Below, piece after piece: positions 717 through 50,432 of a stretch of 50,432 nt of DNA. The stretch lies in IMG/VR virus record IMGVR_UViG_3300047388_000082, positions 1 to 50,432 of that record; one strand, 5' to 3'. Within the stretch, counting starts at the first letter, position 1, and each line of letters opens with the position of its first letter. Origin of the DNA: a virus (lineage: Duplodnaviria; Caudoviricetes). The notes beneath the pieces are model-generated. The model was not told the DNA's origin. It did not search any database and worked only from the letters and a program-made list of their open reading frames with translations. Position numbers and translations under genes: made by a program.

Positions 717-916
717 CTGATCGGCTCGAGCGTTCGGTAAATAGTGCGAGGAGGGACATCAAGCTCCACGACTACCTCCACGTGGTCGTATCCAGCCTCC
801 CGGTTCTCTGCGGCAGCACGCTTCTCAGCCCACTCCTTGTCCGCTGGACCGCACGTCAGGTAGATCTTCTCGGGCCGTCTTGATGAGTCCTTCTGCGTCG
901 ATAGTTTCTGCGTCAC
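713..916 (-). CDS. Small hypothetical protein overlapping the integrase 3' end
   Basis: GAGGAG then GTG at 916; stop coupled to the next ATG; start uncertain. Confidence 0.4.
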   Translation of the reverse strand: MTQKLSTQKDSSRRPEKIYLTCGPADKEWAEKRAAAENREAGYDHVEVVVELDVPPRTIYRTLEPIR

Positions 917-1931
917 GTAGCTCCTCGATGATGTTGACGTAGGTTGAGAGGAGCGTTTGGACCGTGTGGCCCATCTGCTCCGCAATGACTGCAGGGTTAC
1001 GCCCCTCAGCAAAGAGAAGAGAGGCGAACGTGTGTCGAAGATCATAAGGCCTTACACCGTCTGGGGCGGCTTCGGCCCAGCTTCGATTGCGCCAGTTACG
1101 GTAGTCCGTGTCCTTCCAGGGCTTCCCATCCCTTCGCGGGAATACCAGGCCGTCTCGCTTACCGGATGCCAGCTTCCATCCTCGTGCATCTCCCAGAGCG
1201 GGCCCGTAAGGCCTAACGACGCGACCATTCCCGGTCTTAGTCGGTCCCGTAGATCCAAAACTGACAGAGGCCCGGACACTGATGGTCTGGAGGCCGATGT
1301 CCTCCCACTCAAGTGCAAGAGCTTCACCAGGCCGTAGGCCCGCATACGCCAGAAGAGAAACCAGTGTGGCATCTCTTGGGGCCAGCTGAGCACGGACTGC
1401 TTCAACTTCGGCAGGAGTGAGAGGATGGGGCCTAGACTTTCTAGATCGGGCAGGTTTCTTCACCACCTTCGTAGGATTGATTCTCAGGCGCCGCCACTCC
1501 ACGGCCCGCTCGAGGACACCTTGGAGGAACGAGAGCGTCTTACGGGCTGTCTCATCCCCGTTAGCGTCGATGATGCGGTCGCGCATGTCGGCCACCAGAT
1601 CGGGTGTGATGCGGCGGAGCGTGGTCGTCCCCAGGGCCGGCTTCACGAAGCGAGCCTCCAGATCCTTGTACGCCCTGCGAGTGCTCTCGGCCAAGAAGCG
1701 GTTGCCATGGCGCTCCCACCACTCGGCCAAGAACTCGTTCAGTGTCTCTTGCCCAGCATCCAGCTCGGCGAGATCGCCCCGCCTCTTGGCGAGGTTCACC
1801 ATGGACTCGAACGCAACCGCGTCCTTGCGAAGGTCGAAGGTCTTGTTGCGATAGTTGCCTCGGGCTGAGGAGTCGTAGTAGTGCACGAGGTAGACCGTTC
1901 CCTTCTTGCGGTTGTGTCTCTGGATGCTCAT
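825..1931 (-). CDS. int: Tyrosine integrase
   Basis: AGGAGG RBS, MSIQRH start; AGLRPGEALAL (Arg I), YDLRHT, MGH and catalytic Tyr (STYVN). Confidence 0.95.
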   Translation of the reverse strand: MSIQRHNRKKGTVYLVHYYDSSARGNYRNKTFDLRKDAVAFESMVNLAKRRGDLAELDAGQETLNEFLAEWWERHGNRFLAESTRRAYKDLEARFVKPALGTTTLRRITPDLVADMRDRIIDANGDETARKTLSFLQGVLERAVEWRRLRINPTKVVKKPARSRKSRPHPLTPAEVEAVRAQLAPRDATLVSLLAYAGLRPGEALALEWEDIGLQTISVRASVSFGSTGPTKTGNGRVVRPYGPALGDARGWKLASGKRDGLVFPRRDGKPWKDTDYRNWRNRSWAEAAPDGVRPYDLRHTFASLLFAEGRNPAVIAEQMGHTVQTLLSTYVNIIEELRDAETIDAEGLIKTAREDLPDVRSSGQGVG

Positions 1932-1938
1932 GTTCCTC

Positions 1939-2154
1939 CTAGTAGATGTGGTAGTCGGAGGTAAGTACGGCGATCCCGTCGTTGATACCGGAGATCGCAC
2001 CGGCCAGTTCTTTGCGTGATTCGATGTCTTCCTTCATGAGGGCGTTCGTTACCTCCATGATCCTGCGGTTCTCGTCGATCCGTTCGTCGAGCCGCTCCAT
2101 CCGCTTCTCGTAGTCCGAGAGCTTCTCCTGGAGCAGACGCACAGCCACGTTCAT
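1939..2154 (-). CDS. Small coiled-coil protein
   Basis: ORF track; heptad-like sequence; coupled to neighbours. Confidence 0.7.
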   Translation of the reverse strand: MNVAVRLLQEKLSDYEKRMERLDERIDENRRIMEVTNALMKEDIESRKELAGAISGINDGIAVLTSDYHIY

Positions 2155-14446: not shown

Positions 14447-15268
14447 CTAGAACTCGATGAGGTTGTCGGTGTCGTCCTCGGTGTCGCCGTCATCCGTAGA
14501 TGTCAAGCGATCGAGGACGTTGAAGTTCACGTCCAAGCATGTACCAGGACGCTCGGTCTCGATCAGGCGGGCGATCCCGCCCAGCATGGCGGCGGCTGAC
14601 CTAGGGGCCAAGGCCGGCGCGGTGTTCACTTCCAGCACGTAGGTGTGGCCGTCGTCTCCTACAACGAGATCGACAGCCCCGAAGTGCAGCCCGTGAGCCT
14701 TGACCGCTGCTATGGCCAGGGACTCCTGGAACGCGTTGAGACGCGTCCTGGGAGACACGAAGGTGTGTCCGTGCTCGTAGTTGCGAATCCAAGGCGTGTA
14801 CACCGTGTCATCCGTCAGAACCTTCTCTGACACACGGACGCACTCATCCCCGACCACACGAGCCCGGTACTCACGGGCGACAGGAACGTACTCCACGAAG
14901 AAGTCCGCCGATGGGTACATGGCGGCGTCTCCAAGCTGCATACACAGACCGATGTCCTGGCCCCGCGTATGGTTGATGCTGCGGGACAAGAAGGGCGCAC
15001 GCAGGTTCCCAGGTACCTCCGAGAAGCGAGGGACAACAATCCCCCGCTGTGACATACGGAGAAAGCTGTTCAGCTTGTGGGTAGCCCGCTCAATGGCGTT
15101 CGCTGGGTTGATGGTCAGCTCAGCCTGGTACGGGACACTTCCTGTTGCTCCCCAGCGGATCAAGACGTCTTGCCTATCGCTGGGTACTTCCGTGCCGTGG
15201 GGGATGCCCAGCGCCTCGCCGAGCACCTCCCCAGTAGGCCGCGTGGTGCGGTGGTAGAGGAAGAACAT
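14447..15268 (-). CDS. ATP-grasp (RimK/YheCD-like) peptide ligase
   Basis: LIRWG, EYRARV, FGAVDLV, YVLEVNTAP. Confidence 0.88.
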   Translation of the reverse strand: MFFLYHRTTRPTGEVLGEALGIPHGTEVPSDRQDVLIRWGATGSVPYQAELTINPANAIERATHKLNSFLRMSQRGIVVPRFSEVPGNLRAPFLSRSINHTRGQDIGLCMQLGDAAMYPSADFFVEYVPVAREYRARVVGDECVRVSEKVLTDDTVYTPWIRNYEHGHTFVSPRTRLNAFQESLAIAAVKAHGLHFGAVDLVVGDDGHTYVLEVNTAPALAPRSAAAMLGGIARLIETERPGTCLDVNFNVLDRLTSTDDGDTEDDTDNLIEF

Positions 15269-15426
15269 CAGCAGCTACACCGTTCAGGTGAGCAGGCAGG
15301 GCAACGGCTGTGAATTGCTTCGCTCCTGTATTCCAGGATCGTCTGCTGCTGCTCTGCGATGACGGCTTCGAGCTTGGTGACCTTCTCCTCACAGTCGCAC
15401 CCGAACTCCGGATGACAGAAGGCCAT
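15268..15426 (-). CDS. 52-aa Cys-rich peptide
   Basis: MAFCHPEFGCDCEEKV...CPACSPERCSC*; coupled at both ends. Confidence 0.6.
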   Translation of the reverse strand: MAFCHPEFGCDCEEKVTKLEAVIAEQQQTILEYRSEAIHSRCPACSPERCSC

Positions 15427-16865
15427 TAGTGGAACACCTGCCTCATCTTGGACAAGAACCCGCCGAGGCCCTCGCCTTCGAGCTCGTCCTCCCAGGCATT
15501 GACCTCCTTCTCGATGTCGGCGTAAGCCGTGTCGCACTCCTCTCTGGCCTCAGACAGCCAGGGGTCGTTGTTGATGACGAACACCTCTGCACGGAACAGC
15601 ACCCACTCGACGAAGCCCACGTTGTAGGTCGTCTTCTCAGCCACCTTGGCGAGGATGAAGTTGTGCCTCTCCATGTTGTCGCTTTGCAGCGCATCGTTGA
15701 GCACTGTTGCCATATCCGCGTCGGGATACTCGCTCCCCGCCACCAGTGCGAGCTGCGGCTTCGGACGCGGAGTACCAATCACGTTCGCGGCCGGTGCCAT
15801 GCAGTCGGGACAGAACATCAGCGACTCGTAGACCTCTTCCAGCTCCGTGTATGACGTCCAATCCCCGCAGGAGTCACACTGGATGTAAGAGTCGATCAGG
15901 TCGGTATCCTCTGACACCACTTCCATGAACTCGGCACAACCGCAGCGCGGTCCTGCACTGTAGGAAGCGCCTGTGTCATCAGAGGTCTTCTTGCGGGACA
16001 GGCACTCACCGTCGTAGTACTGGGTGGCGTGCCAGAACCGAGAGTGACCACACTCACACACGGCGTTGCGCTCCGAGGGTGAGAGGACGGTGTTGCAGGA
16101 CGCTCCCGTCCACTGGCTCCCGGTGTTGTAGTAGGTGCGCTCCTTGACCTTGAACTCAAGCAGCTCCCACTCGTCACCAGTGACGTAGACGATCTGACCC
16201 GCCTTGAACTCCTGGAACTTGTCGTTGCTCGGCGGAGTGCCGAACACCTTGGCCCATGCGTTCTGGATGGCGCCCATCTCAGAGGCCCACACCAGGAAGT
16301 TGGCGTTCTCGTGGAAGATCAGGGGCGAGCTTTCACCCTTGGCGAGCACGAGCATGTCGGGGAAGGCCACCGGGTTTATGGCCGCGACGGCGAAGCCGCC
16401 CTCGAGCTCTTGCAGCGCCAGGTGCACCTTGTCGATCCCGTGCTTCTGAATCAGCGCCGGGATGATCTCGGAGTCAACCTGCCCTAGACGAGCGATCCCC
16501 GTCTCTGCGAACAGTTCGTGATCGTTGCTGATGTGACCGTTGTGGGTCACGAAGGTCGTACCGGAGAGGACAGGGTGATTGTTGACGTTCTCCTCAGGAC
16601 GCCCCTGCGTCGCGTAGCGGGTGTGGAGGATGACTGACCGGATGTCGTCACCCTGGATCTTCGGCCGGATCTTGATAAAGTCCGACGCTTTCAGCGGCTC
16701 CTTCGACAGGGCCACCTTCTTGCCACCGACAGATGCGTAGGCCACGCCTGTGGAATCCGTACCTCGGTGCTCGATTGACAACAGCAGCTCATCGACGAAA
16801 CGATTGAGCTGACGCCCGTCTAGACTTCCGGGCTTCTTGATGTGGATACCAGCGATTCCGCACAT
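15426..16865 (-). CDS. Class II (Ntn) glutamine amidotransferase with Cys-rich C-terminal extension
   Basis: MCGIAG start (Cys1), HRGTDSTG, HTRYATQG, NNHP, HNGHI, VDSE, WASE. Confidence 0.92.
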   Translation of the reverse strand: MCGIAGIHIKKPGSLDGRQLNRFVDELLLSIEHRGTDSTGVAYASVGGKKVALSKEPLKASDFIKIRPKIQGDDIRSVILHTRYATQGRPEENVNNHPVLSGTTFVTHNGHISNDHELFAETGIARLGQVDSEIIPALIQKHGIDKVHLALQELEGGFAVAAINPVAFPDMLVLAKGESSPLIFHENANFLVWASEMGAIQNAWAKVFGTPPSNDKFQEFKAGQIVYVTGDEWELLEFKVKERTYYNTGSQWTGASCNTVLSPSERNAVCECGHSRFWHATQYYDGECLSRKKTSDDTGASYSAGPRCGCAEFMEVVSEDTDLIDSYIQCDSCGDWTSYTELEEVYESLMFCPDCMAPAANVIGTPRPKPQLALVAGSEYPDADMATVLNDALQSDNMERHNFILAKVAEKTTYNVGFVEWVLFRAEVFVINNDPWLSEAREECDTAYADIEKEVNAWEDELEGEGLGGFLSKMRQVFH

Positions 16866-18634
16866 TAGGCGATTGCCACCTCCTCGGTGGTTGTGATGTT
16901 GAGTGCACGAATGAAGTCCTCGCCAACGGCGTTGACCTCGCTGTTCTCGATGCAGTAGATGAGGTTGAGCCTCTCGCCCTTGGTGAGCGGGAGCTCGTTG
17001 AAGATGAAGCTCAGACCGTCCTGCCATCCCAAGATGAGGGCAGCCTGTGCCTCGTCGTTGATGTCGTCGAAGTGCTTGTTGACGAACGCGTGATCGTCGA
17101 ACTTGTCAGCGTCGACCTCTTGCTCCGACGTGGCCCAGGCGACCATCGCCTGACAGAGGGCCATGTACGCGTGGATCTTGTGCATGTTGGCCGACGTGTT
17201 GAACACGCGGAACTCGAACGTGCACTTCCCTAGACGACACTCGCACTCGTCCCACGAGTCGTAGCGGACAGCACCACAGGTGCAGTTGCGAGTGAAGCTG
17301 CTGATGTAGTTCTGGAACGAGAGGGCGTTGTACCGATCCATCTCGTTGTCCATTTGCCGGCCGAAGGCCAGCTTGGTCTTGGCTCCTTTGGGCGTGGGCT
17401 GGCAGTAGTGCAGCCCGTTTGTGACCGCCCTATGCATGGGCCACTTGGCGGCACCGAGGCGGAAGATCAGATCCTCCATGAAGCCCCAGATGACCCCCAG
17501 ACGCCATGCGTGCGCGATCCCGGCCTTCTCTGCCCCGACGTGGATATGCAGCCCACACCGGAGGTCGAGCCAAACCTCCTTCGACTTGATCTGTGCCTGG
17601 ATGATCTGCAACGCCTGCCGAAGCTGGCGGATGTCCGTGCGGTTGGCGATGTTCAGCGGCGGGGAGACAAGCTCCCAGTCCACCGAGCTATCGCGCTCGA
17701 GCGACCAGAAGCGGGAATCCGAACCCATGCTGGTCTGCTCGTGATAGCTACCGAGCTCTGCGTGCGGGGTGAGTCCTCGCGCGAAGAGGGCTGCGCCTAG
17801 ACTGCGCCAGCTTCCCCCGCCTTCGATCTCGATACCGACACGCCGGACGTTCTCACGTCCTGGGATGAGCGGGATGATGAGGTCGGCTTCGAGGACGTTG
17901 GTTTCTTCCTCGACCTCGCGGTTCTCTATCGAGGGCAGCTCAGCGTTTCTGTTCGGGTAGCAGTCCTCGCAGTACCCATCTTCGAGGTAGCTCGTCTCGT
18001 AGTCGCATCCGGTACAGCGACCAGGAATACAGTCCTCACACACCGCTCCGCCGTGGTAGTCGGAGTAGATGGTGAGTTCCCGCACAGTGCCCTCAGAACA
18101 AGAAGCACAACGGACGCGCTCCCCGCCTGCATGTGCAGCACAGAAGCGATGCGGGTACGCAGTTGGAGCTGCACACTCGACACAGCTCACGGTGTGAACC
18201 GGACAGACAATCCACTCCTCATCCGTGAAGAGAGGCGATCCCTCAGTTCCGTACCTACCGCACCAGTAGCAACCGAGGCTTGGCGCGTCCCAAGGAGTGT
18301 CTTGATCGGCGCTGAGGTTGCTGAACACCACCCTGTTCGGCGGCGGTGCAGGGCTAGGTGGTGTTGGTGTGTTGTTCGAGTTCAGATACGAGCTGAGTAT
18401 CTCGCTGTAGTTGGCGATCTGGTGGGTCGGGGCGTCATCGTTCTCTACCCAGCCCTCAGGCTGAGGTTGCGGTTGCCTGTACCGCTGCTCACAGTCGATG
18501 CACCCCGGCTGTCCGCAGTCGGCGTCACCGGGTCTTTCTCCAATGTGCGATTCGCTATGCCCCTCCCACAGCGTGCAGAGAGGCTGCGAGCAAGGCCCAG
18601 GAGGGACTTGCTGTTCGTCCGTAGTTTCAGGCAT
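16865..18634 (-). CDS. Amidoligase (COOH-NH2 ligase) with CxxC-rich N-terminus
   Basis: VGIEIE, DSSV...ELVSPPL, CGLHIHV, RYNALSF, TFEFRVFN. Confidence 0.88.
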   Translation of the reverse strand: MPETTDEQQVPPGPCSQPLCTLWEGHSESHIGERPGDADCGQPGCIDCEQRYRQPQPQPEGWVENDDAPTHQIANYSEILSSYLNSNNTPTPPSPAPPPNRVVFSNLSADQDTPWDAPSLGCYWCGRYGTEGSPLFTDEEWIVCPVHTVSCVECAAPTAYPHRFCAAHAGGERVRCASCSEGTVRELTIYSDYHGGAVCEDCIPGRCTGCDYETSYLEDGYCEDCYPNRNAELPSIENREVEEETNVLEADLIIPLIPGRENVRRVGIEIEGGGSWRSLGAALFARGLTPHAELGSYHEQTSMGSDSRFWSLERDSSVDWELVSPPLNIANRTDIRQLRQALQIIQAQIKSKEVWLDLRCGLHIHVGAEKAGIAHAWRLGVIWGFMEDLIFRLGAAKWPMHRAVTNGLHYCQPTPKGAKTKLAFGRQMDNEMDRYNALSFQNYISSFTRNCTCGAVRYDSWDECECRLGKCTFEFRVFNTSANMHKIHAYMALCQAMVAWATSEQEVDADKFDDHAFVNKHFDDINDEAQAALILGWQDGLSFIFNELPLTKGERLNLIYCIENSEVNAVGEDFIRALNITTTEEVAIA

Positions 18635-18642
18635 TCATCCTC

Positions 18643-18783
18643 CTAGTGGATGCCAAGCAGTTGAGGTACGAGGTTGAGCACCGGGACTTTCTCCCAGATG
18701 GCGTGCTCCAGCGGAAAAGCCACGCTGTTGGCGATGCACCAGACGCAGATGCGCCGGCACTTGTGATTACCACCCGCTGCCAT
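18643..18783 (-). CDS. 46-aa peptide
   Basis: GAGGA RBS; MAAGGNHKCRRICVWCIANSVAFPLEHAIWEKVP... Confidence 0.45.
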   Translation of the reverse strand: MAAGGNHKCRRICVWCIANSVAFPLEHAIWEKVPVLNLVPQLLGIH

Positions 18784-19588
18784 TGCAGTCCTCGCAGCAG
18801 TAGCCGTCGTCGCCGTCACCGTAGTAGTCGTCATCCCCGGCGTACTCATGTCCTTCCGGGAAGACAGGGTTCGCCACCTTGTCCATCAGGACTAGACTGG
18901 CGACCTTCGCGGTCTTGGTACGTGAGAGCAGCTGGGCGCTATCGGCACAGGTCAGGATCGTCTTGCGCTTCTTGACCGTCTCCAGGAACGCCTGCCCGAA
19001 GTACACCCAGGCGGCTGCGTGGTTGAAGTTGAGCGTGCCCTCGTGCTGACGAATCTCGATCGTGCCGTGTTCGTCAAGGGACGAGATATTCAGAGCAGCG
19101 AACCGCTCTGAGAAGTACTTGGGCTTGTTCTTGTAGGCGTCGTCACCGTCTCTGTAGATGGAGCCTGACTTGATCTGGGCGATCTTGTGCTCGTTCCAGT
19201 AGTCCGCGTAGCAGGCCCAGTAGTTCCCCCGCCTGTACTCGGACACGAACTTGCTGATGTGCTCACGGTTGGCGCTCCACGTCTCCACCAACTTCATGGT
19301 GAGGTCGTCATCGTCGACGAACTCAGGAGCGTCGTGGTGGACGTGCAGGCCGTCCTCGGCGGTCACAGTGGCGTCGTTATCGACAAGCAGCTCCATGACC
19401 TTCTTGAGCTCGAGCAGGCCCTTGGCCCCCCGCAGGATGGGGGACGGAATCTCTGTGCCACTACCGTCCTGATGGATGTACATGTCTGCCCAGGACTTGA
19501 AGCCGTTGTCCCTGAGCAACTCCTTCGCACGCACAGGGCCACCAGGAAGGTCACACTCGATCTCGACTCCGAATGCTCTAGCGCGCAT
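18767..19588 (-). CDS. Amidoligase (COOH-NH2 ligase), second paralog
   Basis: FGVEIE, DGS...EIPSPIL, GLHVHH, RFAALN, GTIEIRQHEGTLN. Confidence 0.92.
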   Translation of the reverse strand: MRARAFGVEIECDLPGGPVRAKELLRDNGFKSWADMYIHQDGSGTEIPSPILRGAKGLLELKKVMELLVDNDATVTAEDGLHVHHDAPEFVDDDDLTMKLVETWSANREHISKFVSEYRRGNYWACYADYWNEHKIAQIKSGSIYRDGDDAYKNKPKYFSERFAALNISSLDEHGTIEIRQHEGTLNFNHAAAWVYFGQAFLETVKKRKTILTCADSAQLLSRTKTAKVASLVLMDKVANPVFPEGHEYAGDDDYYGDGDDGYCCEDCNGSGW

Positions 19589-19745: not shown

Positions 19746-19797
19746 AAGAGATTCGCCCTCCTTCGGGTTGTTGATGAACCGCCGTACTTGCAGCGGA

Positions 19798-19880
19798 TGG
19801 ACCACGCGGGGATCGAACCCGCCCGAATGTCTGCCCCGCGCTCTTGGGAAGCGCTAAGGCGCTGAGAGCGACATTGGCCC
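19798..19880 (-). ncRNA. Atypical tRNA-like element (83 nt)
   Basis: GGGCCA/TGGTCC-A acceptor, T arm GCGGG-TTCGATC-CCCGC, arm GCGCT-TCCCAAG-AGCGC; no canonical D loop. Confidence 0.6.
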
Positions 19881-19976: not shown

Positions 19977-20240
19977 TCAAGGACGTGAATCGCATTCTGG
20001 ATCATCGAACGCCCAGTCCTCCTCTCCCCACTTCGCCCAGTCGTAAGGAGCGTCTGCCGCACCTAGACTCGCGGGTGCGGCGTCAAGGAGCACGCGCTCC
20101 AAATCTGCCGTCCCGTAGTGCGCTTCTAGACTGACGCGGACGTCACACTCGTCACACGCACCAGTCCTCTCGCCTCCCAAGCCACGCGCACAGTAGGCGC
20201 AGTAGCCGGGATCGAACTCGCCCTGATCTAGACTCTCCAT
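19977..20240 (-). CDS. Small Zn-ribbon protein
   Basis: GGAGG RBS; CAYC...CDEC. Confidence 0.65.
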   Translation of the reverse strand: MESLDQGEFDPGYCAYCARGLGGERTGACDECDVRVSLEAHYGTADLERVLLDAAPASLGAADAPYDWAKWGEEDWAFDDPECDSRP

Positions 20241-20410
20241 TCGACTACCTCCACATTGTCGAGACGTGCAAGACGGAGCACGTCGGTGAGGGACATCGTG
20301 CTGGCACACACGGGGATGACGATGGGGTCATCACCAGGAACAGGAAGCTCGATCCATTCGACCATGATGTCCTCGCGGGATTCACGAAGACACACGCGAA
20401 TCTTGCCCAT
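20228..20410 (-). CDS. Small hypothetical protein
   Basis: MGKIRVCLRE...; TAATG coupling. Confidence 0.55.
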   Translation of the reverse strand: MGKIRVCLRESREDIMVEWIELPVPGDDPIVIPVCASTMSLTDVLRLARLDNVEVVEWRV

Positions 20411-22252: not shown

Positions 22253-22319
22253 AACTTCCTCCTTTGGAGGTACAGCCTGTTGCTTGTGGTCGGCACAAGC
22301 ACCGTTCAGTGCGACTCCC

Positions 22320-22562
22320 TTACAGGGAGAGACAGGACAGGCAGCGATTGACTCGCCGACCGTCCCTCGAAACTGTCACAACGGTGGAACCGTCCTGGGG
22401 GCACGTGGCCCGACCAGCCGAGCGCGTCATCCACACCTTGGGCTCGTTAGATGCCCGAGGGTGCATGGGATCTTCGATCCGGTAGAAGCGCGGTGAAGCG
22501 AACTCGCAGTCAAGCTCGGCGACACGAGGAGTGCCGACGCCTTGCATCCTGATTCTGGGCAC
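22320..22562 (-). CDS. 80-aa protein with C-terminal Zn ribbon; first plausible early CDS
   Basis: GAAGGGAG RBS + GTG; CPQDG...CLSC. Confidence 0.55.
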   Translation of the reverse strand: MPRIRMQGVGTPRVAELDCEFASPRFYRIEDPMHPRASNEPKVWMTRSAGRATCPQDGSTVVTVSRDGRRVNRCLSCLSL

Positions 22563-22586
22563 AGTGCTCCCTTCGTCGTGGGTGGG

Positions 22587-22639
22587 TGGAAGCAGACGGG
22601 AGGGAATCGAACCCTCACACTTTCGCTCCAGCCGTCCGC
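22587..22639 (-). ncRNA. Miniature tRNA-like module (acceptor stem + T arm, no anticodon arm)
   Basis: GCGGACGG/CCGTCTGC 8-bp stem, GAGGG-TTCGATT-CCCTC T arm, 3' TTCCA. Confidence 0.7.
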
Positions 22640-23202
22640 ATTGAGGCTCGTACTCGGGCGGGGATACCATCCCCCCGCATGTAGCCGCTTTTCTGATCGG
22701 GGCGCCCTTACACCTTCGGTGTAGAGCTGCACTTGCCGACCCTTGGCCCCGCCGTGTCTGGGGCATCGTGCGTCTACGCGGTTCGCCTTGCGTGCTCGTC
22801 CGTTGCGTGTGGATCTCTCGTCGATGCCATCACAGCTTTGCTGTGTCAACGCCTCCACCTAGTCACATCACGTAGTCACTACGTGACCCCGGTTACAGGG
22901 CACTCCAGCACGGTCGTTACACCGAAGGTGTGTGAGCCTGATCTGCCTGCGGGCCAGCATCTTGACCATGCGAGTGATCGCATAGCTTCGCCACGCCTCT
23001 GGACAGGGGCCATATCCACGCCAGGGGGTTTCACCCAAGCGGGTGAGCAGTTGAGCGACTGCTCGGGTTGGCGCACTCGTCGCCTGGCACGCTCATGCCT
23101 GATGACTGCGCTGCCTGTGACCGCACCATGCGGGGGTCACGTGAAGCGTTATGCCGGGTGGCCCGTCAGTAGCGGGTGACTCGGCACCGGACTGCTCCGG
23201 CC
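22587..23202 (-). ncRNA. Candidate large structured ncRNA (~610 nt)
   Basis: Follows a consensus promoter; no credible ORF or RBS; more than 15 hairpins with nested closing helices; ends in a tRNA-like module. Confidence 0.65.
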
Positions 23203-23207
23203 GACAC

Positions 23208-23236
23208 AACTTAGGGATGCCCGGCAGGAATGTCAA
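23208..23236 (-). promoter_or_regulatory. Housekeeping-sigma early promoter
   Basis: TTGACA (23236-23231), 17-nt spacer, TAAGTT (23213-23208). Confidence 0.85.
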
Positions 23237-23473
23237 GCGAAATCTTCAAATCGTCTCGCAAACCCGCATGGTTGAGCCAAATATCCGTCCCGATATCTCG
23301 CATTAGCGTGCATGACCCAGGTGCATGACCGGCGCGTCACGGGCACTTGCAGGTCAGTCGTGAAACGACCGCGAGCTCGGGCAGGGCTGCGAGGGGTGGA
23401 ACCCCGGTGAGCGCATGCTGGCGGGCGCTGACGTAGGCAAGGTGCGCGCAAGGCGCCCATACGCGAGAGGCGA

Positions 23474-23515
23474 AAATGGGCCGGAAATGGGCTTCCAAAA
23501 GGGGTCGAAATGGGC
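23474..23515 (+). repeat. Phased AAATGGGC repeats
   Basis: AAATGGGC at 23474, 23485 and 23508 plus variant AAAGGGGT at 23498. Confidence 0.7.
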
Positions 23516-24368
23516 TCGATAAACTCGTCGCCGTTTATGCCGTAACGGTGCAACCATGTTTATCGTGTTAAGCCGCATTTCCCTAGTGTTGATGCGGCAT
23601 AGCGGTGCAGTAGGGCAGGCTAGCGCCGCACCAGGGCTGGCATGGGTGGGGGTGTGCATGATGCGGGGTCACATGCGCCGCACTAGTGGGTGCATGTGGG
23701 TGTGTATGTGAGGGCTACGCCCTATGCATGCGCGCCCATATGTATGTGCATGTAACGCGCATGGAATGGGCGATTGAGGCGATTGTATGCAGAGTGTGTG
23801 AGTATGCCTCTATGAGGCATCATCTGGCTCGTCTGCCCTCATAAGGGGAAAACGTTAAGCCCCGTTTAGGGGTACTAAGTGTGAGTGTGTGAGACACCAT
23901 CTACATCAAATGTCCCCTCATGAAGGGTCTCGATATAGCAAAATTAGACCTCTGTAGTTCTTCTGTACTTAAGTACTTAGTACTACGAACGTTCTGACCC
24001 CTCTACAAGAATGACTATAGGAGCCAAATCCCTCCAGAGGGGGAAGAACTTCGGCGCTGGGACCAGAAATAGCGTTACAAAACCACCTCTACTTGCCTTG
24101 TTATAGGTAGAGGCCCATTTTTGGGACTCCCTACTTCGGGGAGGCACCGCTAAGGAGCAATCAGCCAGCGGTCTCCCTCCCCTACCACCTTGCGACGCTA
24201 GAGCTCGAGCGGCGCGAGACCGGATGAAGCCCCTGGGCTCTTGTGTAGAGAAGGTTGTCTGCGAACAGCTGGACCGTTTAGCGGCGGTTTGGTCTGCGTC
24301 AAAGACTTCCTCCCTCGCTCTTGAGTCTGGGGGCCTCTCGCCGGCTTTACACCCAATTTGGAGGTGAC

Positions 24369-24683
24369 ATGGCGAAGTTTGAACAGGGGATCGTGGTCCT
24401 GCACGCACCTCTGGGCCATGTGAACCAGACGGTCAACGTTACGGCCGCTCCCCTCAACGCTCTACCAGCACTAGATCGCATCCGCCGGGTGGTAATCCGG
24501 ACGGTTGACCAGCCAATCTGCTGGCGGGACGACGGTACTGCACCCACGAACACCACGGGGATGTACCTAGCCGCCGGGGACACGTTGGTCTACGACGGAA
24601 CCCGCGCCGATCAGCTCCAACTCATCCGCGCAATCACTGCCACTACCGACGCTGACGTTCGGTTGGCCTACTTCGGAGTCTAG
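24369..24683 (+). CDS. Small beta-rich virion protein (putative)
   Basis: GGAGG RBS, MAKFEQ start; first late gene. Confidence 0.7.
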   Translation: MAKFEQGIVVLHAPLGHVNQTVNVTAAPLNALPALDRIRRVVIRTVDQPICWRDDGTAPTNTTGMYLAAGDTLVYDGTRADQLQLIRAITATTDADVRLAYFGV

Positions 24684-28198: not shown

Positions 28199-29692
28199 AT
28201 GCCGGGGTTCCACTACTCGGCAGGGATCACTCTCTCTGCAGACGAGATTGGGGAACGGATAGCCCCATGCGCCACCAAGTTCGCGTGGTTCATGAAGAAC
28301 GGCTACTCCCCTCACTACTGGCAGTCGCTCTTCCACTCGGGCTGGAAGGCGGATGACCCCGACCAGGGACTCTGCCGGTTCCGTCACCTAGTTGCAGGAC
28401 GCCGTGGCGGCAAAACGATGTCGGCGGCCTGGGAGCTGGCGTACTACGTGCTGCACCCGGAGGAGTTTCACTGGGATGCGCACCGCGTCAAGTCTTCGAG
28501 GCCGCTGCACGTCTGGGTCGTAACGAAAGATTTCCCGACGGGTCACCCGGCCCTAGTGTGGTTCCGCGAGGTGCTGGCAGCAGCCGGCGCTGAGCACGGA
28601 CATGAGTACCGAGAGAACAAAGGCAACCACTGGTTCGAGTTCGACAACGGTTCCTTCGTTCACTTCCGATCAGCAGAAGACCCCGAGTCTCTGCGAGGTG
28701 CGGGTAACGACATCATCTGGATGGACGAAGCCGCCTTCATCCCGAGCAAGCGTGCTTGGGAAGTAAGCAGGCCGTCCCTCTCCGACCGTCTGGGTCAGTT
28801 GTGGACTACCACGACCCCTGACGGAAAGAACTGGCTCTACAAGGAGTTCTGGAACGAACAGAAGATCCAGGACCCGAAGGAGCTCCGTGTCGAGTACCGC
28901 TCGATCGACAACCCAGCTTTCCCGCAGCAGGAGTGGGAGGACTTGCTCGTCTCCTACCATCCGATGCTGTTCCGCCAGGAGTACATGGCCGCTTTCGATT
29001 CGATGGCGGGCCGTGAGCTCCACGGCGACTGGCTCAAGTACTACCACTCGGAAGACCTTCCTCGGAACCCCGAGACGAAGCAGCTCGACCTCGACGTCTA
29101 CTTCGGGATCGACCCTGCCATCTCTCTGGCTGACGACGCCGACCGTTTCGCTATCTCGGTCATAGGCGTCACCAAGGACAAGTCACAGGCTTACCTGCTC
29201 GACCTCTTTGCCGATCGCATCTCCTTCCCGGAGCAGATCGAGAAGATCGAGGAGCTCGCCGTCCAGTGGCGCCCAATGCTCATCGGGGTCGAGGCCGTGG
29301 CTTACCAGCTCGCCCTCTCCCAGCAGGCACTTCGGATCCCCGGCTTCCTGCCGATCATCCCCATGCTGGCACCGGGCAAGAAACACATCCGGATCCTCTC
29401 GATGGCCCCCCTGTTCAGGACCGGGCGCATCAAGATCCAGAAGTCCCACTACGACTTCATCAACGAGTGGATCGACTACGACAGCACCAGGTCGAACCCA
29501 GACGATGACTGTCTAGACGCGACGGAGATCGCGCTCCGCATGGCCGGAGCCCTCCTTCCTGGTGACTTCTCCAAACAGAGTGACGAGTGGACCCCTGCCG
29601 GCTCGATGGACGAGCTCGCACGTCGCCTCGCGCCAAGGCCCATGTCCGACGAGGACTGGGGCGTAGACGAGCATCTAGGTGCCGACTTCTAG
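28199..29692 (+). CDS. terL: Terminase large subunit
   Basis: AGRRGGKT Walker A, WMDEAA Walker B, TTTP, GIDPA, DDCLDA nuclease motifs. Confidence 0.95.
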   Translation: MPGFHYSAGITLSADEIGERIAPCATKFAWFMKNGYSPHYWQSLFHSGWKADDPDQGLCRFRHLVAGRRGGKTMSAAWELAYYVLHPEEFHWDAHRVKSSRPLHVWVVTKDFPTGHPALVWFREVLAAAGAEHGHEYRENKGNHWFEFDNGSFVHFRSAEDPESLRGAGNDIIWMDEAAFIPSKRAWEVSRPSLSDRLGQLWTTTTPDGKNWLYKEFWNEQKIQDPKELRVEYRSIDNPAFPQQEWEDLLVSYHPMLFRQEYMAAFDSMAGRELHGDWLKYYHSEDLPRNPETKQLDLDVYFGIDPAISLADDADRFAISVIGVTKDKSQAYLLDLFADRISFPEQIEKIEELAVQWRPMLIGVEAVAYQLALSQQALRIPGFLPIIPMLAPGKKHIRILSMAPLFRTGRIKIQKSHYDFINEWIDYDSTRSNPDDDCLDATEIALRMAGALLPGDFSKQSDEWTPAGSMDELARRLAPRPMSDEDWGVDEHLGADF

Positions 29693-30710: not shown

Positions 30711-33188
30711 TTGTCGGAAATGGCTCAAGCAGCCGCTACCAACGCGGGTAACAAGCCCGCTTCCCAGTTGAAGACCGCGAGCGACCTCGTAGCCAAGATC
30801 GACAAGCTCCGGCAATCGCGTCAGACCCTCGACAACCAGTGGAAGCTGAACCTGGCCTTCTACAAGGGCCGGCAGTACAGCTACTTCAACCGGACCTCCC
30901 GCCAGATCCAGACGCTCCCGACCGATGACGGGGATAAGCCACGCTACCGCGTAAGGCTCGTCTCCAACCAGATCATCACGGGGTCGCACTCACTCCTTTC
31001 CAAGTTCACCAAGACCAAGCCGGTCATCACGGCGACTCCTGGCTCGGGTTCACAGTCCGACGTCAAGGCAGCCCAGATGGCGGAGCGGCTCATGGAGTTC
31101 TGGTGGGACGAGTTCCGCCTCGACGACAAGCTCGAGGAGGCGCTGCTCTGGTCGATCATCACCGGGCAGGGCTACTGGAAGGTCTCGTGGGACCCCAACG
31201 CCAACAAGCAGATGAGGTTCCTGCTCGACCCGCAGGGCAACCCGGTCATCGACGACTCCATGAAGACGGAGTTCATGGCCCAGTTGAAAGAGGCGGGCAT
31301 CGAGGCCCAGGAGAAGGTCGTCAACCTCGGTGACATCCGAGTGGAGGCGATCTCCCCGTTCGACGTTTACCTCGACCCGACTGCTAAGCACTTCGAGGAT
31401 TGCAAGTACGTCATCTGCGTTCACAGTCTAGAACCGGATGAGATCAAGGCACGGTGGGGCGTTGACGTCACCTCCGATGCGCTGGTCTCCGAGCCGGACG
31501 CTTCGGTCCCCTATGAGACCGGACAGCAGGGCGAGAAGACAGTCCGCAAGGTCTACATCGGCTACTTCCTTCCGACCGCCTCGAACAAGAACGGGCGGTA
31601 CGTGGTCTTCGTCAAGGATCCGAATCAGATCCTCGAGGACAAGAAGTGGGCGGACGTCTACCCCATCAACAAGCTGCCGATCGTCAAGTTCCCCGGTCTT
31701 CGTAACCCCGGTCAGATCTATGACGGGTCTTTCGTGGAGCAGGCGATCCCTCTCCAGAAGGAGCTCAACCGCACGCTCTCACAGATCGTGGAGTGGAAGA
31801 ACCTGACCATCAGGCCGCGCGTGTGGGCACCGACAGGATCTCTCCGGACCCGCATCACGAGCGAGCCGGGAATCGTCTACGAGTACAACCCGATCGCAGG
31901 ACTCAAGCCTGAGGTCGAACAGCCTAAGCCGATCCCGCCCTACATCTTCGAGCACTTGACGGAGATCAGCGGCCGGATTAAGGAGATCTTCGCACTGACG
32001 GAAGTCTCCGAAGGCACCGTGCCCCCGAACGTTGAGGCGGGCATCGCGATCGACCTTCTGCAGGAGTTGAGTGCAGACAGGTTGGCTCCGACGATCAAGC
32101 TGATCGAGAAGAGTCTAGCGGCGGCGGGGCAGTTGATGCTCTCGCTCGCACAGACCTACTACATCGAACCTCGCTTCCTCAAGATCAGAGGATCAGGCGG
32201 GGCGACACAGGTACAGAAGTTCACGCAGGCTGACATCGAGGGTGGCACATCCATCAGCGTGGAGACCGGCTCAGGCCTCCCGCGCACTCGAGCTGGTCGG
32301 CAGGCGCAGATCATGAACTTCATCGACAAGGGAATCATCCCGCCGGACAAGGCGTGGAAGTACATCGACATCGCGGACCTCAAGGGACTTGCGGCGCAGT
32401 ATGCGGCCGACGAGGACCAGGCGTACCGCGAGATCGAGAAGCTGATTACAGGCGAGCCCGTCAACCCGATGGCCGTCGCCGACGCTGAGCAGGCATTGCA
32501 GCAAGGGAAGAATCCGGATACCGGGCAGCCGCTCGGACCGCAGGACAACCCGCAGCAGATCCTCCAGAAGGCGTCACTGCAACCGCTGATCGGTGAGAAC
32601 TACGACGTTCACCTCGACGTCCTGTCCTTCTTCATGAAGGGCGTGGAGTTCGAGGCGCTGGACATTCAGATCAAGCAGGCGATGATCCAGCACTGGGAGC
32701 TCACGCTCCAGGCGAAGTTGGCACTGCCCGGTCCTCTTGAGGCTGGCAAGGTCAACACGAACGTTCAGATCAAGGCGACGATGGGTCCGACAGTGGCTTC
32801 CAAGCTGCTCACCCGTCAGGGCATCATGGTTACTCCGGAGGAGGCTTCCGAGCCGCCGCTTGAGACCTGGGTGTCTGACAGTGTGGACGACCCCGATGCA
32901 GATGCGACTGGTCCGGGCGAGGAAGGTAACAACCTCGCCCAGGCCGCTCAGGTCATGCTCAAGGCGCAGACTGACCAGGCGACTGCTTCATTGGCTGCAC
33001 AGCAGAACAAGCAGCAGCACGAGCAGAGTCTAGATGTAACTGCCCAGAAGGCAGGACAGGACGCTCAGCTCCATCAACAGAAGATGGCTCACGCTGAGGA
33101 GCTGCATCAGCAGTCGCTAGCCCTTGCCGCGAAGAAGACGAAAGAGTCTTCCTTCAAACCCCAGCCGAAGAAAACAGGAGCGAAGTAA
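30711..33188 (+). CDS. Portal protein (long, podovirus-type)
   Basis: Follows TerL; GQGYWKVSWD and ISPFDVYLDP patterns; Q-rich helical C-terminal barrel. Confidence 0.88.
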   Translation: MSEMAQAAATNAGNKPASQLKTASDLVAKIDKLRQSRQTLDNQWKLNLAFYKGRQYSYFNRTSRQIQTLPTDDGDKPRYRVRLVSNQIITGSHSLLSKFTKTKPVITATPGSGSQSDVKAAQMAERLMEFWWDEFRLDDKLEEALLWSIITGQGYWKVSWDPNANKQMRFLLDPQGNPVIDDSMKTEFMAQLKEAGIEAQEKVVNLGDIRVEAISPFDVYLDPTAKHFEDCKYVICVHSLEPDEIKARWGVDVTSDALVSEPDASVPYETGQQGEKTVRKVYIGYFLPTASNKNGRYVVFVKDPNQILEDKKWADVYPINKLPIVKFPGLRNPGQIYDGSFVEQAIPLQKELNRTLSQIVEWKNLTIRPRVWAPTGSLRTRITSEPGIVYEYNPIAGLKPEVEQPKPIPPYIFEHLTEISGRIKEIFALTEVSEGTVPPNVEAGIAIDLLQELSADRLAPTIKLIEKSLAAAGQLMLSLAQTYYIEPRFLKIRGSGGATQVQKFTQADIEGGTSISVETGSGLPRTRAGRQAQIMNFIDKGIIPPDKAWKYIDIADLKGLAAQYAADEDQAYREIEKLITGEPVNPMAVADAEQALQQGKNPDTGQPLGPQDNPQQILQKASLQPLIGENYDVHLDVLSFFMKGVEFEALDIQIKQAMIQHWELTLQAKLALPGPLEAGKVNTNVQIKATMGPTVASKLLTRQGIMVTPEEASEPPLETWVSDSVDDPDADATGPGEEGNNLAQAAQVMLKAQTDQATASLAAQQNKQQHEQSLDVTAQKAGQDAQLHQQKMAHAEELHQQSLALAAKKTKESSFKPQPKKTGAK

Positions 33189-49994: not shown

Positions 49995-50391
49995 GCCTCA
50001 ACGCGAACTAGATGACCACATCGCCGCTCTATGCGACGAGCACAGCGTTACCCGGATTGTCCGTCCGGGTCGTGGTCGTTGCCGTGCTTCGATTCGGGTG
50101 ATTCGCCATCCCCCGATCCACGAGGAGATGGCCTATTTCGTGGCTCTGCACGAGGTAGGCCACGCAGTGCTCGGAGTACCGCCTCAACTATCTCGGCTGG
50201 AACGTGAGGCGTGGTGCTGGAACTGGGCTCTTGATCAGGCTTTGATCTGGCCCGACTACTCCACCCGCCAGCGGATAGCCGCTTGCTTAGTGCGCTACCT
50301 CTTCCGTGCAGTCGAGCGCGGATGGCGTGTCCCAACCGCCGAATCAGACTTCTGGCGTCTGCTCCGTTGGTGGGATCAGGCAGCGGCATAG
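49993..50391 (+). CDS. ImmA/IrrE-like HEXXH metallopeptidase
   Basis: FVALHEVGHA...LEREAW..A; converges on the junction-spanning HTH gene. Confidence 0.65.
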   Translation: MPQRELDDHIAALCDEHSVTRIVRPGRGRCRASIRVIRHPPIHEEMAYFVALHEVGHAVLGVPPQLSRLEREAWCWNWALDQALIWPDYSTRQRIAACLVRYLFRAVERGWRVPTAESDFWRLLRWWDQAAA

Positions 50392-50432
50392 ATGTGGGCG
50401 AGCTCTTCGTCGTGGTGCCAGGCGAGCTCGTA
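50388..50432. repeat. Terminal direct repeat, right copy
   Basis: Matches 1-45 with 1 mismatch. Confidence 0.95.

Follow-up and report, generated by a model that had tools for sequence, protein, structure and literature searches.

What is a run of some 640 nucleotides (nt) without a credible open reading frame (ORF) doing at the head of the early operon of a phage? The question is raised by positions 22587-23202, read on the minus strand, of the 50,432-bp window analysed here, which is the entire IMG/VR virus record IMGVR_UViG_3300047388_000082 (rated 99% complete). A preliminary description of this DNA had proposed that the stretch encodes an undescribed large phage RNA, the first product of a strong early promoter, with an ornate fold built on multi-way junctions and a tRNA-like module at its end. 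The stretch is non-coding, is enriched in hairpins and contains a tRNA-derived module, and its architecture, though not its sequence, is common to related phages. We propose that it gives rise to a long, hairpin-rich RNA of the leftward operon, either an untranslated leader or an early non-coding transcript, with a tRNA relic at its end and a likeness to the Pleft transcript of mycobacteriophages L5 and D29. We put the probability of this reading at roughly one half. The predicted folding energies and pairing ensemble give no backing to a large ornate RNA fold.

A non-coding gap between divergent operons

The stretch makes up the left third of a gap that separates the leftward early operon from the divergent rightward packaging and structural operon (Table 1). 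A codon log-odds model trained on 15 long ORFs of the same genome gives no positive score in any of the six frames from approximately 22300 to 24370, while the flanking genes score +8 to +20. The preliminary description had placed a 640-nt interruption in an otherwise tightly packed genome; the non-coding gap is in fact ~1.8 kb long. Its statement that no credible ORF lies behind the promoter holds, since all frames are negative and the longest ORFs have no homologues. The largest ORF within the stretch, 148 amino acids (aa) on the plus strand at 22733-23179, finds no homologue in a collection of 5.8 billion proteins, in which the ORF itself was never called as a gene. The three longest ORFs of the stretch likewise match nothing in PHROGs.

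A further 148-aa frame, 22320-22766, bears on where the first leftward gene begins. HMMER searches with this frame recovered two 81-aa homologues, P0124 (67% identity) and P0125 (59%), which cover only its last 66-79 residues, with residue 2 of P0125 aligning at query residue 70. Because the homologues are confined to the C-terminal ~80 residues, the first gene starts at the GTG at 22562, and the 640 nt upstream of it are consequently untranslated. The resulting 80-aa protein has P0124, P0125 and P0127 as homologues, although the codon score of its gene is weak. A neighbouring 166-aa protein has homologues in P0002 and P0003.

Many hairpins, ordinary folding energy

All 22 of the motif strings quoted in the preliminary description are present on the minus strand within the stretch, and its impression of an unusual wealth of hairpins was correct. 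The 616 nt contain 12 perfect hairpins with stems of at least 5 bp and seven with stems of at least 6 bp (loops of 3-8 nt), compared with means of 5.11 and 1.32 (standard deviation 1.29 for the latter) in 997 windows of the same size across the genome. Seven hairpins of the longer kind represent the genome maximum, a number reached by 5 of the 997 windows, all of them overlapping the studied region, and by none of 500 dinucleotide shuffles. The enrichment extends into the first genes (22281-22329). Between the promoter and the far end of the gap (23237-24369), only two hairpins have stems of at least 6 bp.

Several local hairpins are predicted at pair probabilities of 0.94-0.99 in the Boltzmann ensemble of 22563-23201, the source of all pair probabilities given here, and values in the main cluster range from 0.02 to 0.99. 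The most conspicuous single element is a 14-nt perfect inverted repeat, whose two arms are predicted to pair over long range with a probability of 0.96, the local hairpins at the same sites having 0.02. Inverted repeats of at least 14 nt arise in 2 of 1000 shuffles of 616 nt and in only 2 of 250 genomic windows, both overlapping the region, making this the longest in the genome at that scale. The genome contains no further exact copy. We considered a miniature inverted-repeat transposable element and rejected it: no target duplication flanks the repeat and there is no third genomic copy.

Folding energy gives a different answer from the hairpin count. The minimum free energy of the whole minus-strand stretch is -262 kcal/mol, against -252.8 +/- 7.8 kcal/mol for 120 dinucleotide shuffles (z -1.17), of which 14 fold as well as the native sequence; a run of 20 shuffles gave z -1.12. 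For local windows of 100 nt on this strand, z spans +1.3 to -1.8. Thus two measures of structure disagree, one strongly enriched and the other ordinary. The elaborate architecture put forward in the preliminary description fares poorly: the stretch folds no better than shuffled sequence, the first outcome that the description itself had named as refuting, and all four of the nested helices said to close multi-way junctions have a pair probability of 0.00. Allowing G-U pairs to extend the stems adds six pairs on the minus strand and four on the plus strand, which amounts to no strand preference.

The strongest local folding in the gap lies elsewhere, on the plus strand, where the windows 23660-23759 and 23780-23879 have z scores of -4.56 and -3.68. 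The plus strand at 23660-23880 is an odd GT- and CATG-rich sequence with direct repeats of 34 nt and 11 nt. Hairpin promoters of the N4 type, serving a virion RNA polymerase, were also considered and rejected; the longest protein encoded by the genome, at 1143 aa, matches no PHROG.

A tRNA relic at the 3′ end

The statement that the region ends in a tRNA-like element proved well founded. The module retains a 5-bp T stem with an exact GGTTCGATTCC loop and an 8-bp helix, so that, as in canonical tRNAs, a T arm with a GGTTCGAnnCC loop is stacked on an acceptor helix, here of 7-8 bp. The GGTTCGATTCC loop has just two copies in the genome, the second lying in an attP-like fragment discussed below. 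A covariance model built from the tRNA-Leu genes of six related phages matches 22594-22678 with 22.9 bits (rough E 0.0017). In this alignment, the D-arm-like hairpin, a short variable arm and the T arm find their counterparts, and a 23-nt unpaired insert takes the place of the anticodon arm. The distal acceptor strand pairs at 4 of 7 positions; the 8-bp helix is made with a second, internal strand. Two of the eleven hairpins originally listed therefore belong to the decayed tRNA.

Position provides a second likeness. Within the module, 25 nt are 92% identical to the tRNA-Leu(CAA) of the relative L054. That tRNA gene shares the strand of the module and precedes the gene for the large terminase (TerL) by 5552 nt; the module itself precedes TerL by ~5560 nt. 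Across the loci of relatives, the only sequences that match the module are the T arms of tRNAs. The module therefore shares with the tRNA-Leu of its relatives a consensus T loop, D-loop-like and variable-arm-like parts, and its position. It differs from a canonical tRNA in its destroyed anticodon arm and in its rejection by dedicated models: ARAGORN calls no tRNA gene and no tmRNA (transfer-messenger RNA) at the module, and the Rfam tRNA model RF00005 has no match at E up to 10. Rfam gives only sub-threshold matches, the best being mascRNA-menRNA at 19.2 bits (cutoff 42.5), together with tRNA-Sec at 15.6 bits. On this sequence evidence, the module looks like a decayed derivative of a tRNA.

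The exact 25-nt string has no match among viral contigs, and a 22-nt string of T arm plus acceptor has no exact match in the genomes of 185,579 species. Rfam and the tRNA-Leu models detect no further relics within 22680-23202. Among the papers listed by a literature search on phage pseudo-tRNAs and tRNA-like elements, none was relevant. A tmRNA was rejected, given no ARAGORN or Rfam tmRNA match and two acceptor strands that lie just 15 nt from the T arm.

The module was also considered as a phage attachment site (attP) and rejected, as the integrase gene is 20.6 kb away and has a tRNA-Thr-like 3′ fragment beside it instead, and as the 22-nt string matches none of the genomes searched. This fragment, at 386-441 on the plus strand, is separated from the end of the integrase gene by ~390 nt. 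It runs from the anticodon arm through the T arm to the 3′ acceptor strand of what looks like tRNA-Thr(CGT), an identity assigned by eye, and is likely to be the attP core. A second sub-threshold tRNA-like element occupies 19797-19880 on the minus strand, in a 390-nt gap between the ORFs 18767-19588 and 19977-20309. It matches the tRNA-Leu model with 21.9 bits (rough E 0.003), receives no call from ARAGORN and folds like a cloverleaf, with a loop, UCCCAAG, that reads as a CCA anticodon with C33.

A promoter-like site upstream

The strong early promoter of the preliminary description is a site whose presence and direction we can endorse and whose strength we cannot. TTGACA-N17-TAAGTT points into the leftward early operon and is the single match to TTGACA-N16-18-TANNNT in the 50,432-bp genome, where 0.20 would be expected. 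Its position and orientation are sensible for an early promoter, making a sigma-70-like promoter plausible, with transcription predicted to start near 23201. At least one such match appears in 16 of 100 shuffles. The -10 hexamer agrees with TATAAT at only 3 of 6 positions, which is why a stricter promoter scan missed the site.

Shared architecture, divergent sequence

TerL of this phage belongs to a family with 561 matches at 52-80% identity. We compared 160 loci of TerL relatives, some of them duplicated between two collections (L005 and L082, for example); the closest TerL relatives, P0005-P0013 at 68-80% identity, lie outside this set. Sequence comparison yields almost nothing. A blastn search with 22300-23500 returned no hits in 50,697 phage records, and in the 160 loci blastn and nhmmer matched 22300-24400 in two places only, the T arm and, at 24094-24122, a motif of 29 nt. 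Translated searches (tblastx) against the same loci gave no match between 21400 and 24300, and searches by way of the neighbouring proteins returned nothing in viral, metagenome or genome contigs. Among public sequencing runs, the sequence is present in a single soil metagenome, as one identical contig without variants; no homologue of the stretch was found in the others, and none of the RNA data sets contains the sequence. That metagenome is probably the source of the record. The gaps of the relatives share with each other only blocks of 50-70 nt.

What the relatives do share is the arrangement. Those of high guanine-cytosine (GC) content, namely L005, L085, L087/L013, L072 and L014, hold 1.5-3.5 kb without coding signal between divergent operons, whereas lower-GC relatives such as L054 have no comparable non-coding gap. 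The densest hairpin window falls inside the gap in six of the nine relatives examined. In L005, a similar leftward promoter-like site lies ~1 kb upstream of the first clear leftward gene. Genes for tRNAs occur upstream of the terminase gene in 10 of 41 scanned loci, from 1 to 26 in each (26 in L158). No tRNA relics were found in the gaps of L085, L005, L087 and L023, and the only Rfam matches in four of the relatives' loci are bona fide tRNAs.

Two short elements elsewhere in the gap recur among relatives. At 24086-24122 on the plus strand, ~250 nt upstream of the first rightward gene, stands TTATAGGTAGAGG followed by a T run, a motif that is single-copy in the genome. Six lower-GC loci (L054, L063, L061, L055, L051 and L109) keep it directly upstream of the packaging genes, together with an upstream GTTACA. 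In the window it forms a terminator-like hairpin, which is itself unconserved in relatives. The motif may be a late promoter or regulatory site, with a possible resemblance to T7-type promoter cores. Palindromes of the AGTACT type are found in the inter-operon gap here (23966-23990), in L072 (5558-5758) and in L005 (4251-4270), and may be operators of a shared regulator.

A proposed Pleft-like early RNA

The Cluster A mycobacteriophages L5, D29 and StarStuff provide the closest precedent. In the published account (PMC5712189), their early promoter Pleft yields an RNA of ~500 nt without a conserved ORF, which is the most abundant phage transcript, is stable and is processed to species of 100-400 nt. 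The RNA is encoded in a fast-diverging 2.1-kb genome end (PMC5712189); in L5 and D29 it is toxic to the host and its function is unsolved. The idea of a ~500-nt non-coding RNA as the first product of an early promoter is therefore not new.

The likeness lies in the setting. In both cases, the first transcript of an early lytic promoter heads the leftward early operon, and the promoter adjoins the rightward packaging and structural operon, although for the phage studied here the transcript is predicted only. Both also involve ~500 nt without a conserved ORF in a region of ~2 kb that diverges quickly between relatives. There are clear differences. The blastn search of phage records finds no sequence similarity to L5 or D29, and host and phage type are unrelated. 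In L5, ~90% of transcripts are described as terminating at the end of the RNA, whereas a tRNA-like module closes the present stretch. The L5 transcript has been demonstrated to be abundant, stable and toxic; its counterpart here is a predicted one. We regard the precedent as functional in kind, not homologous.

We speculate that events unfold as follows. Host RNA polymerase would most likely transcribe the 640 nt between the promoter (23236-23208) and the GTG at 22562. The hairpin at the 5′ end (23187-23200) could stabilise the RNA and guard it against ribonucleases (RNases) that depend on a free 5′ end, while the internal hairpins would keep a long untranslated RNA stable and shield it from Rho. 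RNase P and RNase Z require chiefly the acceptor/T-arm stack of their substrates. Such a stack just upstream of the first ribosome-binding site might serve as a cleavage site of the RNase P or RNase Z type, and cleavage at the tRNA relic would separate the leader RNA from the downstream mRNA. The outcome would be an abundant early RNA, like the Pleft transcript of L5 and D29.

A number of observations weigh against this proposal. Folding energy is ordinary both over the whole stretch and in local windows, and the plus strand folds slightly better than the minus strand, at z -1.87. The hairpins are perfect palindromes without G-U strand asymmetry, and hence equally able to act in DNA. The gaps of relatives have no sequence in common with this one, leaving conservation of any RNA unproven. 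Three of the nine relatives do not clearly have their peak of hairpin density in the gap (it is borderline in L085 and elsewhere in L023 and L020), and the coding models for L069 and L077 were trained on just two ORFs each. No CCA follows the tRNA-derived module, whose 8-bp acceptor-like helix has a probability of only 0.02 in the full-length ensemble. The promoter match, with its poor -10, is statistically uncompelling taken alone.

If the proposal is right, the observation made in L5 and D29 would extend to an unrelated clade of uncultured soil phages, with a tRNA relic as a possible processing signal added to this type of early RNA. The more solid point is the architecture. High-GC members of a widespread family of ~50-kb phages carry 1.5-3.5 kb of hairpin-dense non-coding DNA between their operons, which is unusual for phage genomes and so far unexplained. 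The feature is real, and what is known of it at present places it among the early non-coding regions already described in phages. With no evidence for a new RNA fold or class, it constitutes a lead and not a discovery.

Table 1. Features of the window, with the gaps of four related loci (coordinates of the relatives refer to their own loci).
Feature	Position	Strand	Remarks
Gap without coding signal	22563-24369		~1.8 kb; codon log-odds profile
Promoter-like site, TTGACA-N17-TAAGTT	23236-23208	-	points into leftward early operon
5′ hairpin, CCGGA-GCAG-UCCGG	23187-23200	-	at putative transcript 5′ end; pair probability 0.94
Hairpin cluster	22660-23140	-	23117-23140, 23045-23064, 23031-23046, 22968-22983, 22868-22886, 22831-22845, 22709-22723, 22660-22674
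14-nt perfect inverted repeat	22918-22931 with 22710-22723	-	predicted 14-bp helix closing a 194-nt domain, or two hairpins with identical stems
tRNA-derived module	22592-22678	-	T arm, acceptor-like helix, D-arm-like hairpin; no anticodon arm
T arm	22600-22616	-	intact; 5-bp stem, exact GGTTCGATTCC loop at 22613; pair probability 0.97
Acceptor-like helix	22639-22632 / 22599-22592	-	8 bp
D-arm-like hairpin, GGGGAU-GGU-AUCCCC	22660-22674	-	aligns to tRNA-Leu of relatives
First gene of leftward operon	22320-22562	-	80 aa; four conserved Cys, zinc-ribbon-like; GGGAG upstream of GTG
Leftward arm	22562 down to 825	-	split family-A DNA polymerase, AAA_25 helicase-like protein, amidoligase/glutamine-amidotransferase cluster, tyrosine integrase
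Tyrosine integrase	825-2000	-	gene annotation of window
Rightward arm	24370 onward	+	packaging/structural operon including major head protein and tail proteins
Large terminase (TerL)	28199-29692	+	gene annotation of window
P22-like portal	30711-33188	+	gene annotation of window
Gap in L085	3180-6300		without coding signal
Gaps in L005	1860-3400, 3900-5100		without coding signal
Gaps in L072	3360-4620, 4980-5900		without coding signal
Gap in L014	5600-8100		without coding signal

Alternative explanations

The best surviving alternative, which we nonetheless consider unlikely, is that selection acts on the DNA. The palindromes and the 14-bp repeat would then be protein-binding or cruciform sites of an origin, packaging or regulatory region, and any RNA would be incidental. 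Perfect Watson-Crick stems without strand asymmetry and the slightly better folding of the plus strand are what such a region would show, and a 14-bp site present twice in inverted orientation is as expected of two binding sites. The 1.8-kb gap upstream of the packaging operon also holds the AGTACT palindromes (found in L072 and L005 too), the GT-rich repeats and the conserved TTATAGGTAGAGG. Against this, every hairpin differs in sequence, unlike iterons or operators, and the scarcity of hairpins in 23237-24369 means that the enrichment tracks the putatively transcribed part of the gap.

Less probable in our judgement is a decaying slot for tRNA genes, or an unconstrained spacer, that has no function and in which template-switch mutation has generated perfect palindromes in unselected DNA. 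The corresponding slot of relatives does carry 1 to 26 tRNA genes, two sub-threshold relics exist in this genome (22594-22678 and 19797-19880), and the gaps of relatives have diverged past recognition. Yet sensitive tRNA models see no additional relics in 22680-23202, and the hairpin density is well above that of the remainder of the gap. Further, junk DNA of ~2 kb is rare in phage genomes, yet several relatives hold gaps of 1.5-3.5 kb.

We are doubtful of the original proposal, in which a discrete and stable RNA species of ~560-610 nt would adopt a specific ornate tertiary fold, in the manner of GOLLD and ROOL, and act as a scaffold, sponge, anti-defence or antitermination RNA. According to the relevant report (PMC5737381), ROOL RNAs average 581 nt, and GOLLD and ROOL are found in phages and prophages, often beside tRNAs. 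A ~640-nt region in a phage record with a tRNA relic at its 3′ end fits that size class and setting, although context alone does not define membership, and the exceptional hairpin density and the predicted 14-bp long-range helix point the same way. The preliminary description was right not to recognise the sequence as GOLLD or ROOL: Rfam models give no gathering-score match anywhere in the window, and over 22300-23500 neither family is matched even at E up to 10. Unlike those RNAs, it has no demonstrable conserved multistem junctions and its folding energy is ordinary, the z scores being no better than those of shuffles and the four junction-closing helices being absent from the ensemble. No GNRA or UNCG signature is visible among the hairpin loop sequences listed. 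Equivalent gaps in relatives at 50-60% TerL identity are unconserved, whereas GOLLD and ROOL are kept across phyla according to that report (PMC5737381). Of the large undescribed RNA first envisaged, the non-coding status, a plausible promoter, the hairpins and the tRNA-like end remain, and the ornate fold and the junctions find no support.

A more specific version of an RNA-level explanation also strikes us as improbable. Here a lineage-specific RNA of 560-640 nt would carry a 5′ hairpin cap and a 14-bp long-range closing helix and be released by RNase P or RNase Z at a tRNA-derived minihelix, a phage counterpart of MALAT1-mascRNA. It would represent one case of a hairpin-dense non-coding control region of 1.5-3.5 kb that is found throughout the clade and evolves fast, with selection acting on structure and not on sequence. 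What the module shares with MALAT1-mascRNA, and with RNase P substrates other than tRNAs, is its place at the 3′ end of a long non-coding region and an acceptor helix stacked on a T arm with no functional anticodon arm. The match of 19.2 bits falls far short of the cutoff of 42.5, the mascRNA family is eukaryotic, and cleavage in the phage is a proposal.

Unrecognised small protein genes with atypical codon usage are very improbable: ORFs of 32-148 codons do occur in several frames, but besides the negative codon scores and the blank homology searches reported above, the small minus-strand ORFs have no Shine-Dalgarno sequence, the N-terminal 68 codons of 22320-22766 match just one repetitive 1772-aa protein and no small homologue, and by our own estimate an ORF of ~148 codons is expected about once by chance per 2 kb at 60% GC.

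Genomic context

The phage is an orphan, a temperate, podovirus-like soil phage of 50.4 kb. Named phages are only distant kin, the top portal match being to Arthrobacter phages at 28% identity. The record is labelled linear, but its first 45 nt (1-45) repeat its last 45 nt (50388-50432) with one mismatch, an overlap that makes the assembly effectively circular. On the minus strand of the early arm, 14447-19588 encodes two Amidoligase_2 proteins, a glutamine amidotransferase and a protein resembling ribosomal protein S6 glutaminyl transferase.

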